This document shows positions 5,164-35,993 of a stretch of DNA of 64,000 nucleotides, piece by piece; the stretch's first letter is position 1, and each line of letters starts with the position of its first letter. This DNA comes from Escherichia coli (GTDB taxonomy: Bacteria; Pseudomonadota; Gammaproteobacteria; Enterobacterales; Enterobacteriaceae). The translations under genes and the position numbers were made by a program. The stretch lies in NCBI RefSeq assembly GCF_041886205.1, contig NZ_CP169029.1. One strand, 5' to 3'. The notes beneath the pieces are model-generated. The model saw only the letters and a list, made by a program, of their open reading frames with translations. It was not told where the DNA came from and made no database searches.

Positions 5164-5736
5164 ATGCGTGGATTACGTCCGGCATTATCGACATTTATCT
5201 TTCTGTTATTGATTACTGGCGGCGTTTACCCGCTGCTGACCACCGTGCTGGGGCAATGGTGGTTTCCCTGGCAGGCCAATGGTTCGTTGATTCGTGAAGG
5301 TGATACGGTGCGCGGTTCGGCATTAATCGGGCAGAATTTTACCGGCAACGGCTATTTTCATGGTCGCCCGTCGGCAACGGCAGAAATGCCCTATAATCCA
5401 CAGGCTTCTGGCGGGAGCAATCTGGCGGTCAGTAACCCTGAGCTGGATAAACTAATAGCCGCACGCGTTGCTGCATTACGGGCCGCTAACCCGGATGCCA
5501 GCACGAGCGTTCCGGTTGAACTGGTGACGGCATCGGCAAGCGGGCTGGACAACAATATCACCCCGCAAGCGGCGGTCTGGCAAATCCCACGCGTGGCGAA
5601 AGCGCGTAATCTCAGCGTTGAACAGCTCACGCAACTGATCGCAAAATACAGCCAACAACCGCTGGTGAAATATATCGGCCAGCCGGTCGTCAACATTGTT
5701 GAACTCAATCTGGCGCTGGATAAACTTGATGAATAA
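5164..5736 (+). CDS. kdpC: K+-transporting ATPase subunit C
   Basis: 190-aa frame from [20 protein letters not shown]; track ORF begins 24 nt upstream at a TTG. Confidence 0.9.
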
Positions 5737-8413
5737 CGAACCCTTACGTCCCGACCCCGATCGTCTGCTGGAACAAACTGCCGCGCCGCATCGGGGGAAG
5801 CTGAAAGTTTTCTTCGGTGCCTGTGCAGGCGTCGGGAAGACCTGGGCGATGCTGGCAGAAGCCCAGCGACTGCGGGCGCAAGGGCTGGATATTGTGGTTG
5901 GCGTGGTAGAAACCCATGGGCGGAAAGATACCGCCGCCATGCTTGAAGGGCTGGCTGTTCTGCCGCCCAAACGCCAGGCGTACCGTGGGCGGCATATCAG
6001 CGAGTTTGATCTCGATGCCGCCCTCGCCCGCCGTCCGGCGCTGATCTTAATGGACGAACTGGCGCACAGTAATGCGCCAGGTTCTCGTCATCCTAAACGC
6101 TGGCAGGATATCGAAGAACTGCTGGAAGCTGGCATTGATGTTTTCACAACCGTCAACGTTCAGCATCTGGAAAGTCTGAATGATGTGGTCAGCGGCGTCA
6201 CCGGAATTCAGGTACGGGAAACCGTGCCCGATCCTTTTTTCGATGCCGCCGACGACGTAGTGCTGGTGGACTTGCCCCCGGACGATCTGCGCCAGCGGCT
6301 GAAAGAAGGCAAAGTCTATATTGCCGGGCAGGCGGAGCGCGCCATTGAACATTTTTTCCGCAAAGGCAATCTGATCGCCCTGCGTGAACTGGCACTGCGC
6401 CGTACTGCCGATCGCGTAGATGAGCAAATGCGCGCCTGGCGGGGGCATCCTGGTGAAGAGAAAGTGTGGCACACGCGCGACGCGATCCTTTTATGCATCG
6501 GGCATAACACCGGCAGTGAGAAACTGGTCCGCGCGGCGGCGCGGTTGGCCTCGCGCCTGGGTAGCGTCTGGCACGCGGTGTATGTTGAAACCCCTGCCCT
6601 GCATCGCTTACCGGAAAAAAAACGTCGGGCAATTCTCAGCGCCTTACGTCTGGCGCAGGAGCTGGGCGCGGAGACGGCAACACTTTCTGATCCAGCGGAA
6701 GAGAAAGCGGTAGTCCGTTATGCCCGTGAACATAATCTCGGCAAGATTATTCTCGGTCGCCCAGCCTCGCGCCGCTGGTGGCGTCGGGAAACGTTTGCTG
6801 ACCGACTGGCGCGCATCGCCCCCGATCTCGATCAGGTGCTGGTCGCGCTTGATGAACCACCCGCCCGCACGATTAACAACGCGCCGGATAGCCGCTCTTT
6901 TAAAGACAAGTGGCGGGTACAGATTCAGGGATGCGTGGTTGCCGCCGCGTTATGCGCCGTTATCACCTTAATTGCCATGCAGTGGCTGATGGCGTTTGAT
7001 GCCGCCAACCTGGTGATGCTGTATCTGCTTGGCGTGGTGGTAGTGGCGCTATTTTATGGACGCTGGCCTTCGGTGGTTGCTACCGTCATTAATGTGGTGA
7101 GTTTCGATCTCTTTTTTATCGCCCCACGCGGCACGCTCGCCGTCTCTGATGTGCAATATCTGCTGACCTTCGCGGTGATGTTAACCGTCGGGCTGGTGAT
7201 CGGGAACCTTACTGCTGGCGTGCGTTATCAGGCGCGGGTAGCCCGTTACCGCGAGCAACGCACACGGCACTTATATGAAATGTCGAAAGCTCTGGCGGTG
7301 GGCCGCAGTCCGCAGGACATCGCCGCCACCAGCGAACAATTTATTGCCTCCACGTTTCATGCCCGCAGTCAGGTGTTGTTGCCCGATGACAACGGTAAAT
7401 TGCAGCCGTTAACACATCCGCAAGGAATGACGCCGTGGGACGATGCCATCGCGCAGTGGAGTTTTGATAAAGGCCTGCCTGCGGGTGCGGGCACCGACAC
7501 GTTACCCGGTGTACCGTACCAAATTTTGCCGTTAAAAAGCGGCGAGAAAACCTACGGACTGGTGGTGGTGGAACCGGGGAATCTGCGTCAGTTGATGATC
7601 CCGGAGCAGCAGCGCCTGCTGGAGACGTTTACGCTGTTAGTCGCCAATGCGCTTGAGCGGCTGACGCTGACCGCCAGCGAAGAACAGGCGCGGATGGCAA
7701 GCGAACGTGAACAGATCCGCAACGCCCTGCTGGCGGCGCTTTCGCATGATTTACGCACTCCGCTTACGGTGCTGTTTGGTCAGGCAGAAATCTTAACGCT
7801 CGATCTGGCAAGCGAAGGATCACCCCACGCCCGCCAGGCCAGCGAGATTCGTCAGCATGTGCTGAACACTACCCGACTGGTGAATAATCTACTGGATATG
7901 GCGCGAATTCAGTCCGGCGGCTTTAATTTGAAGAAAGAGTGGTTAACGCTGGAAGAAGTAGTCGGCAGCGCGCTGCAAATGCTGGAACCGGGTTTATCGT
8001 CGCCCATCAATCTTTCTCTGCCAGAACCGCTGACCTTAATCCACGTTGACGGGCCACTCTTTGAACGGGTGCTGATTAATCTGCTGGAGAACGCGGTGAA
8101 ATATGCGGGTGCGCAGGCCGAAATTGGTATCGATGCCCACGTTGAGGGCGAAAATCTACAACTGGATGTCTGGGATAACGGGCCCGGTCTTCCGCCAGGC
8201 CAGGAGCAGACGATATTTGATAAGTTTGCTCGCGGGAATAAAGAGTCGGCAGTACCGGGGGTAGGGCTTGGACTGGCAATTTGTCGGGCGATAGTGGATG
8301 TACACGGGGGCACTATTACCGCGTTCAACCGACCGGAAGGTGGTGCCTGTTTTCGTGTTACACTTCCCCAGCAAACTGCCCCTGAACTTGAAGAATTTCA
8401 TGAGGATATGTGA
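5729..8413 (+). CDS. kdpD: sensor histidine kinase KdpD
   Basis: 894-aa frame from [16 protein letters not shown]; HisKA/HATPase region ([10 protein letters not shown] ... [11 protein letters not shown]); overlaps kdpC end by 8 nt. Confidence 0.95.
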
Positions 8414-9087
8414 CAAACGTTCTGATTGTTGAAGATGAACAGGCTATTCGTCGCTTTCTGCGCACGGCGCTGGAGGGCGACGGTATGCGCGTCTTTGAGG
8501 CCGAAACGCTGCAACGCGGCTTGCTGGAAGCGGCAACCCGTAAGCCAGATTTGATTATTCTCGATCTCGGCCTGCCCGATGGTGATGGGATTGAGTTTAT
8601 CCGCGACCTGCGCCAGTGGAGCGCGGTGCCGGTGATAGTGCTTTCCGCACGCAGCGAAGAGAGCGACAAAATCGCCGCGCTGGATGCCGGAGCGGATGAT
8701 TATCTGAGTAAGCCGTTTGGCATTGGCGAATTGCAGGCCCGTCTGCGCGTCGCATTACGCCGCCATTCAGCCACTGCCGCGCCCGATCCGGTAGTGAAAT
8801 TTTCCGATGTTACCGTCGATTTAGCCGCCCGCGTGATTCACCGGGGTGAGGAAGAGGTGCATCTCACCCCGATTGAATTCCGCCTGCTGGCGGTGCTGCT
8901 CAACAATGCCGGAAAAGTGCTCACCCAGCGCCAGCTTCTTAACCAGGTGTGGGGGCCAAACGCGGTCGAACACAGTCATTATTTGCGTATTTATATGGGA
9001 CATCTGCGACAAAAACTGGAACAGGATCCCGCTCGCCCCCGCCATTTCATTACTGAAACCGGTATTGGGTATCGGTTTATGCTTTAG
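8410..9087 (+). CDS. kdpE: response regulator KdpE
   Basis: 225-aa ORF, GTG start overlapping kdpD stop; receiver plus winged-helix OmpR-type. Confidence 0.95.
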   Translation: MTNVLIVEDEQAIRRFLRTALEGDGMRVFEAETLQRGLLEAATRKPDLIILDLGLPDGDGIEFIRDLRQWSAVPVIVLSARSEESDKIAALDAGADDYLSKPFGIGELQARLRVALRRHSATAAPDPVVKFSDVTVDLAARVIHRGEEEVHLTPIEFRLLAVLLNNAGKVLTQRQLLNQVWGPNAVEHSHYLRIYMGHLRQKLEQDPARPRHFITETGIGYRFML

Positions 9088-9097
9088 GCGGTTGAAT

Positions 9098-9185
9098 TAC
9101 CGGATGCGGCGTATACGCTTTATATGGCCTACGTAATGCTCCCGTAGGCATGATAAAACGCGCTAGCGTCGCATCAGGCATTGGC
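9098..9185. repeat. REP/BIME palindromic units
   Basis: CCGGATGCGGCGT... and GCGTCGCATCAGGC motifs typical of E. coli REP. Confidence 0.7.
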
Positions 9186-9201
9186 ACTCATATCGAAATG
9201 T

Positions 9202-9696
9202 TTAATGCGTATTTATCGCTTTCAACTCTTGCTGGCATTTTTCTGACTGACAGCGTCGCAACTCAATAATCCCGACATGCATCATCGAGCCAAAAAATCC
9301 GCTTTCGCTGACATAATCATCATTAACTATCGGTCGAGTGCCGGGCTTACCCTGGCAAATCCTCATAAAAAATGAGGTGTAGCACTGCCAGCCGAGATTT
9401 AAACTGGTCTTTTCTTGTGCTGACATATCGTGAAGATAAGTATGTTCTTTTTCGTTCCCGCCTGACAACTGCCAACGTCGGGTATTATCAGGTAAGTTAT
9501 CGCCAAGGCAATTTGTCTTACACCGGGAAGGCGCAATATTTACTGCAATGCTACCCGTTAATCCTCTGTTTTTATCTTTAGGGGTCAGTAACCAGTCACC
9601 AGCCAATGATGATTGTTCAGGTTGGGCGCATGCAGTCAGCAGTAATGTGGCGGTAATTAGTGACACTCTGACGACCAGACTCCCGTTGGTCTTCAT
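9202..9696 (-). CDS. ybfP: lipoprotein YbfP
   Basis: 164-aa ORF with signal peptide and lipobox (LLLTAC). Confidence 0.75.
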   Translation of the reverse strand: MKTNGSLVVRVSLITATLLLTACAQPEQSSLAGDWLLTPKDKNRGLTGSIAVNIAPSRCKTNCLGDNLPDNTRRWQLSGGNEKEHTYLHDMSAQEKTSLNLGWQCYTSFFMRICQGKPGTRPIVNDDYVSESGFFGSMMHVGIIELRRCQSEKCQQELKAINTH

Positions 9697-9746
9697 TGGG
9701 ATTTCCTTGAGCTATTCAGTTTGTTGACACAGTGTTCGTTGTTTTT

Positions 9747-9845
9747 GCCGGATGCGGCGTGAACGCCTTATCCGGCCTACAAAATCGCGCAAATTCAATA
9801 TATTGCACCATCTTTGTAGGCCTGATAAGCGTAGCGCATCAGGCA
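9747..9845. repeat. REP/BIME palindromic units
   Basis: GCCGGATGCGGCGTGAACGCCTTATCCGGCCTAC ... GCCTGATAAGCGTAGCGCATCAGGC. Confidence 0.75.
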
Positions 9846-9852
9846 GTCATAA

Positions 9853-9886
9853 GTAAAAAAGGGCGATCTTCCGACCGCCCTTTTTC
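9853..9886 (-). terminator. rho-independent terminator after pgm
   Basis: AAAAAGGGCG-loop-CGCCCTTTTT hairpin immediately 3' of pgm stop. Confidence 0.6.
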
Positions 9887-9899
9887 TTATTTAATGTGT

Positions 9900-11540
9900 T
9901 TACGCGTTTTTCAGAACTTCGCTAACAATCTCAACCGCTTCTTTCTCGATCTGCTTGCGATGTTCTTCCCCGAGGAAGCTTTCGCAGTAGATCTTATATG
10001 CGTCTTCCGTGCCTGACGGACGCGCGGCGAACCAGCCGTTGTCAGTCATCACTTTCAGGCCGCCGATAGAAGCACCGTTGCCCGGTGCCGCCGTCAGGCG
10101 CGCGGTGATTGGGTCGCCTGCCAGGGTGCTGGCGCTCACCATTTCCGGAGACAGCTTAGACAGCGCCGCTTTTTGTGCGGAAGTCGCAGCTGCCTGCAAA
10201 CGGTTGTAGCTCGGCGCACCAAAGCGTTTTGCCAGTTCGTTGTAGTGTTCCTGCGGGTTCTTACCGGTGACCGCGGTGATTTCCGCCGCCAGCAGACACA
10301 TAATGATGCCGTCTTTATCGGTGGACCACGGCGTGCCGTCGAAACGCAGGAAGGAAGCCCCTGCGCTCTCTTCGCCGCCAAAGCCGAAGCTACCGTCGAA
10401 CAGACCATCAACAAACCATTTGAAACCTACCGGTACTTCTACCAGCTTACGGCCCAAGTCATTGACCACACGGTCGATCATCGCAGAAGAAACCAGCGTT
10501 TTACCGACGGCAACATCTTTGCCCCACTGCGGACGATGCTGGAACAGGTAATTGATCGCCACCGCCAGGTAGTGGTTCGGATTCATCAAACCTGCCGGAG
10601 TGACGATACCGTGACGGTCATAATCCGGGTCGTTAGCAAACGCCAGATCGAACTTATCACGCAGTGCCAGCAGGCCCGCCATCGCACACTCGGAGGAGCA
10701 GTCCATACGGATCGCGCCGTCTTTATCAAGGTGCATAAAGCGGAAGGTTTGATCGACCTGATCGTTAACGATAGTCAGGTTGAGGTTGTAATACTCGCCA
10801 ATACGCTTCCAGTATTCGATACCGGAACCGCCCAGCGGATCAACGCCAAGCGTCAGGCCCGCTTTCTGAATCGCCGCCATATCAACGATATCGGCCAGCC
10901 CTTCCACGAACGGCTGCACCAGATCCTGCTCTTTCACATGACCGGATGCCATCGCTTCGTCGAGAGAGATACGCTTCACGCCTTTCAGGCCATCGGCCAG
11001 CAGTGCGTTGGCCCTGTCTTCCACCACTTTGGTGACGTTGGTATCAGCCGGGCCACCATTTGGCGGGTTGTACTTGATACCACCATCTTCCGGCGGGTTA
11101 TGGGACGGTGTAATCACGATACCGTCTGCCAGCGGGCCACCTTTTTTATTGTGAACCAGGATGGCATTGGAAACGGCAGGCGTCGGGGTGAAGCCATTGT
11201 TTTCCTGCACAATGACATCAACGCCGTTCGCTGCCAGCACTTCCAGTACGGAAATGAACGCAGGCTCGGACAGGGCGTGAGTATCTTTACCCACATAGCA
11301 AGGGCCAGTGATGCCGTTTTTCGCACGTTCTTCAGCAATTGCCTGAGCGATCGCCAGAATGTGCGGCTCGTTAAAGCTGTGGCGCGCTGCACTGCCACGG
11401 TGACCGGAAGTACCGAATTTCACCGCATGCTCCGCATTCCCTGCTTCTGGTTTCAGTACATAATATTGCGCCGTCAGTTGGGCGACGTTAATCAAATCAC
11501 TCTGTTGTGCAGGTTGGCCTGCACGATTGTGGATTGCCAT
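9900..11540 (-). CDS. pgm: phosphoglucomutase
   Basis: 546-aa frame from [22 protein letters not shown]; active-site TPSHNP motif. Confidence 0.97.
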
Positions 11541-11565
11541 TGCTTTGTCCTTTGTCTGCAACGTT

Positions 11566-12111
11566 TTAGATAGTTCCGCAAACCTTCTCAATCAATTCCG
11601 CCGGGAATTGCATCGACTGCATGATGTGTTCGATCATGCTGCATTTACGGCCGGTGTTGGTGTTGGTGATCACCCAATACGGCGTGCCTGGCACATGTTT
11701 CGGCTTGGTCTGATTACCATTTTTCAGCAGCGTTTGTTCATCTGCCGCAAAGTAAACGCGCGTACGACCGTGCAACGATTCCGTTGCTTCGGCAAACGCC
11801 TGGGCGTCAAGAGAATATAGTGTAGACAACAGCAGCATAAAGCGATTGACCGCTCGCTTTTGCTCTGCGTATTCATCCGAAAGCAGAAGTTCACGCATTG
11901 CGCGAACCTTGTCTTTAATCGTTTTGACCGGCTTCGCTTCGACGATAGCAGGTGACGCAACGCGAACCTCTTTCGTCACCGGAGCAGCAGGCTGTGATGC
12001 GGCGGAAAATTTCAACATACGCCGTAAAATGTCGGATGCGCTCTCGCCGATATGCTTAGTGTGGCTGGCAATATAGCTGTAGAGTTCATCATCAACTTCA
12101 ATCGTTTTCAT
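11566..12111 (-). CDS. seqA: replication initiation negative regulator SeqA
   Basis: 181-aa frame from [33 protein letters not shown] within larger track ORF; upstream of pgm. Confidence 0.95.
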
Positions 12112-12295
12112 CTTAATCCAGTGCAGTGTCTTAGCTGAATACAAGTCGCCAGGAGTATATGAATAAATCCCGGCAGCGGATAGCGTCAAGCCTGGCTTGC
12201 AGAAAAACTCGGAATAAACCTTATTTGTTGCAGCCCTGTGGCACAATGGTCAACATAATACCCTAACCCGACAACGCGAAAAAAAGAACTTTGCC

Positions 12296-13060
12296 ATGAA
12301 ATTGAATATCCGCGCGCAAACTGCACAAAACCAGCACAATAATTCTCCCATCGTTCTTGTCCATGGTCTTTTTGGCAGCCTCGACAACCTTGGCGTACTG
12401 GCTCGCGATCTGGTAAACGATCACAATATCATCCAGGTTGATATGCGTAACCACGGTCTTTCACCGAGAGATCCGGTAATGAATTACCCGGCGATGGCGC
12501 AGGATCTTGTTAATACCCTGGATGCACAGCAGATCGACAAAGCAACATTTATCGGTCACTCCATGGGCGGTAAAGCGGTAATGGCACTTACTGCACTGGC
12601 CCCCGATCGCATCGATAAACTGGTGGCGATCGATATCGCACCGGTCGACTATCACGTACGCCGTCATGATGAGATTTTCTCGGCTATCAACGCGGTCAGT
12701 GAATCGTACGCACAAACTCGCCAGCAAGCAGCAGCAATAATGCGCCAGCATCTTAATGAAGAAGGGGTGATTCAGTTTCTGTTGAAATCTTTTGTTGACG
12801 GGGAGTGGCGCTTTAACGTGCCGGTATTGTGGGATCAGTATCCGCATATTGTGGGTTGGGAGAAAATCCCGGCATGGGATCACCCTGCCCTATTTATCCC
12901 TGGTGGTAATTCTCCGTATGTTAGCGAGCAGTACCGTGATGATTTACTGGCACAATTTCCACAGGCACGGGCGCATGTGATTGCAGGCGCGGGTCACTGG
13001 GTCCATGCTGAAAAACCGGATGCGGTATTACGCGCTATCCGTCGCTATCTCAATGATTAA
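12296..13060 (+). CDS. ybfF: alpha/beta-hydrolase esterase YbfF
   Basis: 254-aa ORF with GHSMGG nucleophile elbow. Confidence 0.9.
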   Translation: MKLNIRAQTAQNQHNNSPIVLVHGLFGSLDNLGVLARDLVNDHNIIQVDMRNHGLSPRDPVMNYPAMAQDLVNTLDAQQIDKATFIGHSMGGKAVMALTALAPDRIDKLVAIDIAPVDYHVRRHDEIFSAINAVSESYAQTRQQAAAIMRQHLNEEGVIQFLLKSFVDGEWRFNVPVLWDQYPHIVGWEKIPAWDHPALFIPGGNSPYVSEQYRDDLLAQFPQARAHVIAGAGHWVHAEKPDAVLRAIRRYLND

Positions 13061-13199
13061 CGCAACTGATTAAAAACCCAGCGTCCGCGTCGCTTTCCGC
13101 GCGTGGGCGTTGGCGTGACTCATCGCGCTGATGTATTATGGCGCGCTATCCATCCGGGCAGAGGCCTGGCTGATTGTTTCCCCCGAAGTCACCAAGATC

Positions 13200-13493
13200 A
13201 TGGCCAAAGAACAAACGGACCGTACGACATTAGATCTGTTCGCGCACGAGCGTCGACCGGGACGACCGAAAACAAATCCGCTTTCGCGCGATGAACAGCT
13301 GCGTATTAATAAACGCAACCAACTAAAACGCGACAAAGTACGTGGCCTTAAGCGTGTCGAACTGAAGCTGAACGCGGAAGCTGTCGAGGCGCTGAACGAG
13401 CTGGCGGAATCGCGTAATATGAGCCGTAGCGAACTGATCGAAGAGATGTTAATGCAGCAACTGGCGGCGCTGCGTAGTCAGGGCATCGTTTAA
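13200..13493 (+). CDS. ybfE: LexA-regulated protein YbfE (CopG-like)
   Basis: 97-aa frame from [33 protein letters not shown]. Confidence 0.8.
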
Positions 13494-17163: not shown

Positions 17164-17333
17164 TGCCGGATGCGGCGTGAACGCCTTAACCGGCCTACAA
17201 AAGCACGCAAACTCAATATATTGCAGAGATCATGTAGGCCTGATAAGCGTAGTGCATCAGGCAATTTAGCGTTTGAAACTGTTTGTCTGTTCCTTGCCGG
17301 ATGCGACGTAAACGCCCCATCCGGCATAGCGAA
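17164..17333. repeat. REP/BIME cluster (three REP units)
   Basis: GCCGGATGCGGCGTGAACGCC, GCCTGATAAGCGTAGTGCATCAGGC and GCCGGATGCGACGTAAACGCC units. Confidence 0.8.
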
Positions 17334-25530: not shown

Positions 25531-25562
25531 ACCACGTCTCAGGACGTGGTTTCTTATTTTTA
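25531..25562 (+). terminator. rho-independent terminator after nagD
   Basis: ACCACGTC-TCAG-GACGTGGT hairpin followed by TTCTTATTTTT. Confidence 0.7.
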
Positions 25563-25765
25563 CCCATCATTAAAATCATCCCATTCAATAAAACCCGCCA
25601 AAAATTATCGATCCATCAATAAATACGCCACCGCACCATCCCCTTTTTCACAAATCAGCAATCACCATTACGTTTTTTATTTTTCCACCGCCAAATCTCT
25701 TGCGCACGTTGCTGCTTTGCGGCATTTTTTAAACAAGCAACCGCAACAAATTAATGGAGAAGGTT

Positions 25766-35712: not shown

Positions 35713-35993
35713 TTGTTATACAAGGCAAAGCTTGAACCAGCATCAGTACAACCCGGTTGCACCACAGCAATCCACCGGTAGCACCAAAAGAGTGCATTTT
35801 AAGAATTTTGCTTCGGAATGGTGCGGTGCACCTCGCAAAAACAAACAATAAAACATCAATATCTTTACATTTAGCCAAACTAAATGTTACCTAACAGGCA
35901 CAACACTGCACAATAAAGTTGCAGACAATAACAACACAAACACTCACAACGGGTATCCATGCGTTCTTAACGCAGAAGATAAAGGAGTTGGAT

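Follow-up and report, generated by a model that had tools for sequence, protein, structure and literature searches.

Gene order in Escherichia coli K-12 MG1655, ybfP-ybfG-ybfI-potE-speF-speFL-kdpE (b0689-b0694), places 5,149 bp between the stop codons of kdpE and ybfP, an interval that holds the pseudogenes ybfG and ybfI together with potE, speF and speFL, the last encoding the arrest-peptide leader of SpeF. Another close point of reference is the enterobacterial REP/BIME family (Y, Z1 and Z2 types; BIME-1/RIP type), which comprises 34-36-bp imperfect palindromes that fit a consensus and lie between convergent genes as inverted Y/Z pairs. In the window, by which we mean the whole 64,000-nucleotide stretch of E. 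coli contig NZ_CP169029.1 analysed here, the same two stop codons (9085-9087 for kdpE and 9202-9204 for ybfP) are separated by 114 bp (9088-9201) that carry such a pair, one Y- and one Z2-type REP, bearing out the original prediction that kdpE adjoins ybfP across about 115 bp of REP/BIME sequence. Our literature search (ybfI/kdpE, ybfP, and speF/potE by phylogroup or in strain 042) found no description of this junction. As set out below, we consider it very likely that the haplotype of the window is one of five or more that occur naturally at kdpE/pgm, an old one without speFL-speF-potE, ybfI and ybfG, in which the REP is a resident element and not a scar. The features on which the comparison rests are as follows.

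8410-9087, plus strand: kdpE, response regulator of 225 aa, last gene of kdpFABCDE (NCBIfam KdpE equivalog)
9088-9098, no strand: linker GCGGTTGAATT, 11 nt from the kdpE stop to the first REP
9099-9132, plus strand: Y-type REP, degenerate, repeated in direct orientation at 9747-9780
9133-9746, no strand: 614-bp segment (spacer, Z2-REP, ybfP and the sequence upstream of ybfP), absent in kdpE-BIME-pgm strains
9144-9179, minus strand: Z2-type REP, opposite in orientation to the Y-REP and 2 mismatches off the consensus
9202-9696, minus strand: ybfP, predicted lipoprotein of 164 aa with 92% full-length amino acid identity to K-12 YbfP
9747-9780, plus strand: Y-type REP, perfect (0 mismatches), left arm of the ybfP-pgm BIME
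9781-9815 and 9816-9844, no strand: BIME spacer and inverted Z-type REP, conserved in K-12, 042, TB06051 and SCPM-O-B-8794
9861-9880, no strand: presumed pgm terminator, a G+C hairpin between an A-run and a T-run, from reading of the sequence
9900-11540, minus strand: pgm, phosphoglucomutase (NCBIfam TIGR01132, 1074 bits; 100% amino acid identity to K-12 Pgm)

The kdpE reading frame scores 486.7 bits against NCBIfam NF007820 (cut-off 325) with residues 1-225 of 225 covered, lies downstream of kdpD (5696-8413) and is 98% identical to its K-12 counterpart up to 9085, where it ends in TAG, whereas the K-12 gene ends in TGA. Its 3' half (8750-9000) is a lineage-specific divergent patch with 91-96% identity to each other E. 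coli compared, as against 97-100% for the adjoining kdpD/kdpE segments. On the other side of the gap, pgm and seqA follow ybfP downstream on the same strand. As we read the arrangement, the kdp operon ends at kdpE and is followed by the 11-nt linker, the Y/Z2 BIME, the convergent ybfP, a second BIME and pgm.

Both REPs in the kdpE/ybfP gap are extragenic, and they lie on opposite strands 11 nt apart, as expected of an inverted-pair BIME. The REPs were identified by matching to Y- and Z2-REP consensus strings, and shuffled sequences gave an expectation of 0 chance matches for Z2. By a count made by eye, the Y-REP at 9099-9132 agrees with the perfect copy at 9747-9780 at about 28 of 34 bases, and apart from this partly decayed Y copy the pair is an unremarkable member of its family. 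The predicted RNA fold of the BIME pairs the two REPs (-44.6 kcal/mol, with a z-score of only -1.7), a search of the 114-bp gap for intrinsic terminators found none, and the Rfam family naRNA4, which is REP-derived, matches at 9147-9227 below threshold. By analogy with established REP biology, the BIME hairpins would probably end or stabilise the convergent kdpE and ybfP transcripts. In the second BIME, the Rfam family ES036 (CssrF sRNA) matches at 9781-9823 with 40.3 bits, above its gathering score of 37.6; this family appears to be a model of a BIME spacer. A near-perfect Y-REP (1 mismatch) also occurs at 17,165-17,198 in the chiP-glnS intergenic region, and the BIME there cross-matches that between ybfP and pgm at about 87%.

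Alignment to MG1655 showed that kdpE, ybfP, the ybfP-pgm BIME, pgm and the other flanks are collinear at 98-98.5% identity, and that K-12 has 5,149 bp (speFL, speF, potE, ybfI and ybfG) where the window has its 114-bp BIME. Genes do therefore lie between kdpE and ybfP in the reference, and the expectation of an approximately 5-kb K-12 block with potE and speF proved accurate in size and in these two genes, although the presumed ybfG/ybfH pair is a single pseudogene, ybfG, and the block as predicted lacked ybfI and speFL. Searches of the 64-kb window with the K-12 genes (tblastn and blastn) gave no match to speF, potE, speFL or ybfG, the sole match to any part of the K-12 block being a 142-bp similarity between kdpE and ybfI. 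The original prediction had further implied that the block was deleted from a K-12-like chromosome with the REP marking the scar, that is, that the 5.15-kb speFL-speF-potE-ybfI-ybfG segment was recently excised, for example by a REP-mediated event. REPs are known substrates for rearrangement, the K-12 block sits exactly between the two stop codons, and a REP-like remnant is present between K-12 potE and ybfI, all as such a deletion would have it. However, window and K-12 are collinear only up to 9085 and again from 9201, and nothing between these points matches: the 114 bp have no counterpart in the 5.15-kb K-12 interval or at its edges, where kdpE is followed by an AT-rich stretch and a terminator-like hairpin and then by speFL. 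A simple deletion derivative of K-12 would carry K-12 breakpoint sequence only at its junction, and the window carries other DNA there. The ybfP allele of the window is, moreover, 6% off that of K-12.

The DNA at the junction instead finds its counterpart in strains that have neither speF-potE nor ybfP. TB06051 aligns with the window at 5659-9132 (98.0%) and at 9746-13295 (98.1%), and both alignments overlap on the single Y-REP of TB06051, so that the window order corresponds to the bare kdpE-BIME-pgm form plus 614 bp bounded by a duplicated Y-REP. SCPM-O-B-8794 (locus L005), a divergent Escherichia labelled E. coli with about 94% identity, stands in the same relation to the window. This bare haplotype, found in TB06051, ECNB21-M121 and the divergent SCPM-O-B-8794, shares with the window the linker after the TAG stop, the Y-REP, the pgm-side spacer and Z-REP and the absence of speF-potE, and differs from it in lacking the 614-bp segment with Z2-REP and ybfP and in having one Y-REP where the window has two. 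Following the TAG stop, TB06051 reads GCGGTTAAAT and then its REP, and the window reads GCGGTTGAATT and then its Y-REP; the two linkers are nearly identical to each other, similar to those of 042, locus L094 and SCPM-O-B-8794, and unrelated to the K-12 sequence 3' of kdpE. The perfect Y-REP at 9747-9780 is likewise orthologous to the lone Y-REP of the kdpE-BIME-pgm strains. Since linker and Y-REP are thus orthologous to the bare form and unrelated to K-12, the kdpE-side REP is best read as a resident intergenic REP and not as the scar of a deletion. Insertion of the 614-bp unit, or recombination between Y-REP and Y-REP, would interconvert the bare and the window forms.

How old the architecture may be is indicated by the EAEC strain 042 (kdpE, EC042_RS03730; ybfP, EC042_RS03725), which has the same order, kdpE-linker-Y-REP-Z2-REP-ybfP-BIME-pgm, and shows 17 kb of collinearity with the window. 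The spacers of the two strains are 83.8% identical (18 of 111 aligned positions differ, plus 3 gap columns) and their ybfP genes 94.5%. The Y-REP after kdpE is intact in 042, where it fits the consensus perfectly and does not differ from the second Y-REP copy, whereas it has decayed in the window at about 6 of 34 positions. Synonymous divergence (dS) between window and 042 is 0.13 for ybfP, 0.10 for pgm and 0.165 for kdpE. The spacer identity and a ybfP dS close to that of the core genes, a divergence of neutral level, point to an old architecture, about as old, judged from these sequences, as the core-gene divergence of the two lineages. An architecture held in common with 042 at 16% spacer difference and a ybfP dS of 0.13 is not recent, and together with the linker and Y-REP shared with the bare form this renders a recent deletion in a K-12-like ancestor highly improbable. 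Strains 042 and UMN026 have been placed in group D, with IAI39 and SMS-3-5 set apart (Chaudhuri et al. 2010, PMC2808357).

In the pgm-nagE flank, the window lineage comes nearest (99.0-99.3%) to strains like O121:H19 and O103 STEC, which we take to be phylogroup B1, and the nearest strains examined (99.2-99.3%) carry the form in which the speFL-speF-potE cassette lies between kdpE and pgm. Haplotypes at this locus have thus been shuffled by recombination, and either the window lineage imported its haplotype in this way or its relatives did so with theirs. A 250-bp sliding identity profile against eight strains is mosaic throughout, with no clean recombination borders and no imported patch delimited by it, and its only locally divergent stretch runs from the 3' part of kdpE through ybfP.

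Among 5,426 complete E. coli genomes the convergent kdpE/pgm region occurs as at least five natural haplotypes. The cassette-only form, with kdpE-speFL-speF-potE against pgm and without ybfP, accounts for 3,197 genomes (59%; for example UTI89, O157:H7 and the type strain ATCC 11775), and the K-12 order for 1,834 (34%), including IAI39, in which ybfG is intact. K-12 is therefore a minority form and no natural yardstick for the locus. The window order kdpE-BIME-ybfP-BIME-pgm is present in 249-253 genomes (approximately 4.6%), the finished reference strain 042 among them, so that the claimed absence of the block is indeed a difference between strains. The bare kdpE-BIME-pgm form is found in about 55 genomes (approximately 1%), a figure obtained by subtracting the roughly 253 window-type genomes from 308 junction matches, which include them owing to how matches were joined. 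The arrangement kdpE-ybfG-ybfP without speF is confined to 5 genomes, for example CUWW10 (L090, 3001-4452) and GF4-3 (L091), in which both kdpE and the DUF2625 gene next to it (ybfG) are intact, ybfP comes after them and speF-potE is missing; several of the five carry IS1 copies nearby.

The same genomes bear on whether the block is truly missing. REP/BIME repeats can confuse short-read assemblers, and a collapse of the assembly at the REP, with speF-potE truly residing in the interval, had been named as a circumstance that would undo the finding. Yet the window is 100% identical to E. coli LHM10-1 over the junction region, identity across the junction amounts to 99.9-100% in 10 complete genomes assembled independently of one another (hosts: pig, pigeon, cattle, human, frog, bear and poultry), and the architecture recurs in some 240 more complete genomes, 042 among them. 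These observations mark a lineage-level difference, and we give an assembly collapse almost no credence. A relocated copy of the block is also very improbable: speF-potE DNA is present at full length in 5,038 genomes and wholly absent in 295, and the cassette-only and K-12 orders together place 5,031 speF genomes at the locus, which leaves essentially no room for copies elsewhere. From these counts, speF-potE is very probably absent from the window strain and not relocated.

Beyond E. coli, kdpE and pgm are convergent neighbours in every one of 80 Enterobacterales loci, a sample without E. fergusonii, E. marmotae and E. ruysiae. No other gene separates the two in Serratia, Pantoea, Erwinia, Dickeya, Buttiauxella, Kosakonia and several members of Citrobacter and Enterobacter, and the gap is filled by speFL-speF-potE in E. 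albertii, S. enterica arizonae, other Citrobacter and Enterobacter, Kluyvera, Leclercia, Lelliottia and Yokenella; ybfP is in none of the 80 loci. This pattern of presence and absence indicates that the cassette at the kdpE/pgm spot is a recurrent polymorphism that spans genera. In Pseudocitrobacter faecalis (L018) and Enterobacter sp. kpr-6 (L036) a speF-like gene (81-82% amino acid identity) directly follows kdpE, with speFL and potE undetectable at these two loci; it may represent another type of decarboxylase cassette at this hotspot.

Counter to the reading that we prefer, the cassette lies directly against pgm in E. albertii, Salmonella, UTI89 and O157 (the latter two we take to be phylogroups B2 and E, respectively), and the speF-less family could on this account ultimately descend from an ancient loss. 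The ancestor would then have been kdpE-speFL-speF-potE-pgm, and the speF-less family would stem from one old deletion with subsequent acquisition of the BIME and ybfP. The position of the cassette against pgm in UTI89, O157, E. albertii, S. arizonae and 59% of E. coli agrees with such a history, as against the more distant Enterobacterales, which have kdpE against pgm, and the divergent SCPM-O-B-8794 (approximately 94% identity), whose bare BIME form has the linker in common with the window. The cassette is also patchy in Citrobacter and Enterobacter, which makes a gain at the same spot equally plausible. We regard an ancient loss as possible though distinctly short of probable; it bears on ultimate polarity only and is compatible with an old haplotype that does not derive from K-12. 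The hairpin at 9861-9880 is common to all haplotypes; in UTI89, O157 and E. albertii it separates potE from pgm.

Whichever polarity holds, an old speF-less haplotype at kdpE/pgm accords with a relic in K-12 itself. The pseudogene ybfI is a 142-bp 3' end of kdpE that is 89% identical to the kdpE of the window and ends at the stop codon; it lies just downstream of potE and directly upstream of ybfG-ybfP, in the same orientation. As a kdpE 3' relic in this position, it suggests that a speF-less kdpE-ybfG-ybfP arrangement predates the K-12 order. In the simplest reading, the K-12 order looks like a recombinant hybrid, which would have arisen when a cassette chromosome (kdpE-speFL-speF-potE) and a speF-less kdpE-ybfG-ybfP-pgm chromosome were fused, one end of the join being illegitimate. 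On this basis we tentatively propose, with a little under even confidence, that the kdpE/pgm region is an ancient multi-allelic polymorphism with two families (the cassette, and the BIME with or without ybfP/ybfG) that persist across deep lineages of E. coli, in which K-12 is a hybrid and ybfI the kdpE 3' scar of an illegitimate join aided by homology. If so, the long persistence of two families would be a hint that inducible ornithine decarboxylation is under balancing or niche-dependent selection. We also considered the five extant kdpE-ybfG-ybfP genomes as living ancestors of the K-12 order and rejected them in this role: in CUWW10, kdpE does not differ from that of K-12 as far as the stop, beyond which the sequence is the one that lies downstream of ybfI, so that at least this genome is more in keeping with a secondary deletion than with an ancestral form, the deletion running through the final ~19 bp of kdpE/ybfI homology.

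The gene that faces kdpE across the gap is ybfP by sequence similarity, by the lipobox with its cysteine in the N-terminus MKTNGSLVVRVSLITATLLLTAC (...LLLTAC|AQPE) and by its position next to pgm. Its product matches no Pfam or NCBIfam family and falls into only 27 protein clusters among 5.8 billion proteins, all from E. coli where named; no ybfP was found outside E. coli in this search, the most distant match (63% amino acid identity) being an E. coli with the same architecture. Window and K-12 ybfP differ by 6% at the nucleotide and 8% at the amino acid level; the alleles are deeply split, with 5-6% between the classes of the window, 042, IAI39 and K-12 and a distance of 14% for one E. coli allele. 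The dN/dS ratio of ybfP is 0.2-0.3, compared to 0.00-0.04 for its neighbours pgm and kdpE at similar dS, which points to relaxed purifying selection, and positive selection, which we had considered, was dropped on the same ratio. ybfP is listed as an accessory gene in a mastitis pan-genome study (PMC11390585).

From the known roles of the missing genes, we infer that the window strain lacks the acid/ornithine-inducible ornithine decarboxylase SpeF, its leader SpeFL and the putrescine/ornithine antiporter PotE, and that its putrescine must come via SpeC or SpeA/SpeB, encoded outside the window. Approximately 5-6% of sequenced E. coli (all speF-less forms) should likewise lack acid-inducible ornithine decarboxylase and PotE exchange, which makes the speF-less haplotypes relevant to decarboxylase-based phenotyping, mild-acid physiology and studies of polyamine export. 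A pangenome study counts speF with the most frequently pseudogenised E. coli genes (PMC13322260). The K-12 gene order, present in a third of genomes and recombinant in appearance, is unsafe as an ancestral reference. In other respects the junction represents accessory-genome variation of an ordinary kind, at a hotspot of known type; knowledge of REP elements, the kdp system and polyamine metabolism is unchanged by it, and its practical consequences are limited.

Elsewhere in the window, ybgA and ybfA are directly adjacent (739-749), and the 9.5-kb RhsC element of K-12 (rhsC-ybfB-ybfO-ybfC-ybfQ-ybfL-ybfD, MG1655 729,394-738,963) is absent from the window, 042, UTI89 and IAI39. The K-12 IS5D between gltI and lnt (MG1655 687,851-689,045) is absent from the window as well (at approximately 35,887-35,894). 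The asnB-umpH gap is a second REP presence/absence polymorphism, where K-12 has two inverted REPs that form a BIME of about 170 bp and the window has about 30 bp of unrelated sequence (25,551-25,582).
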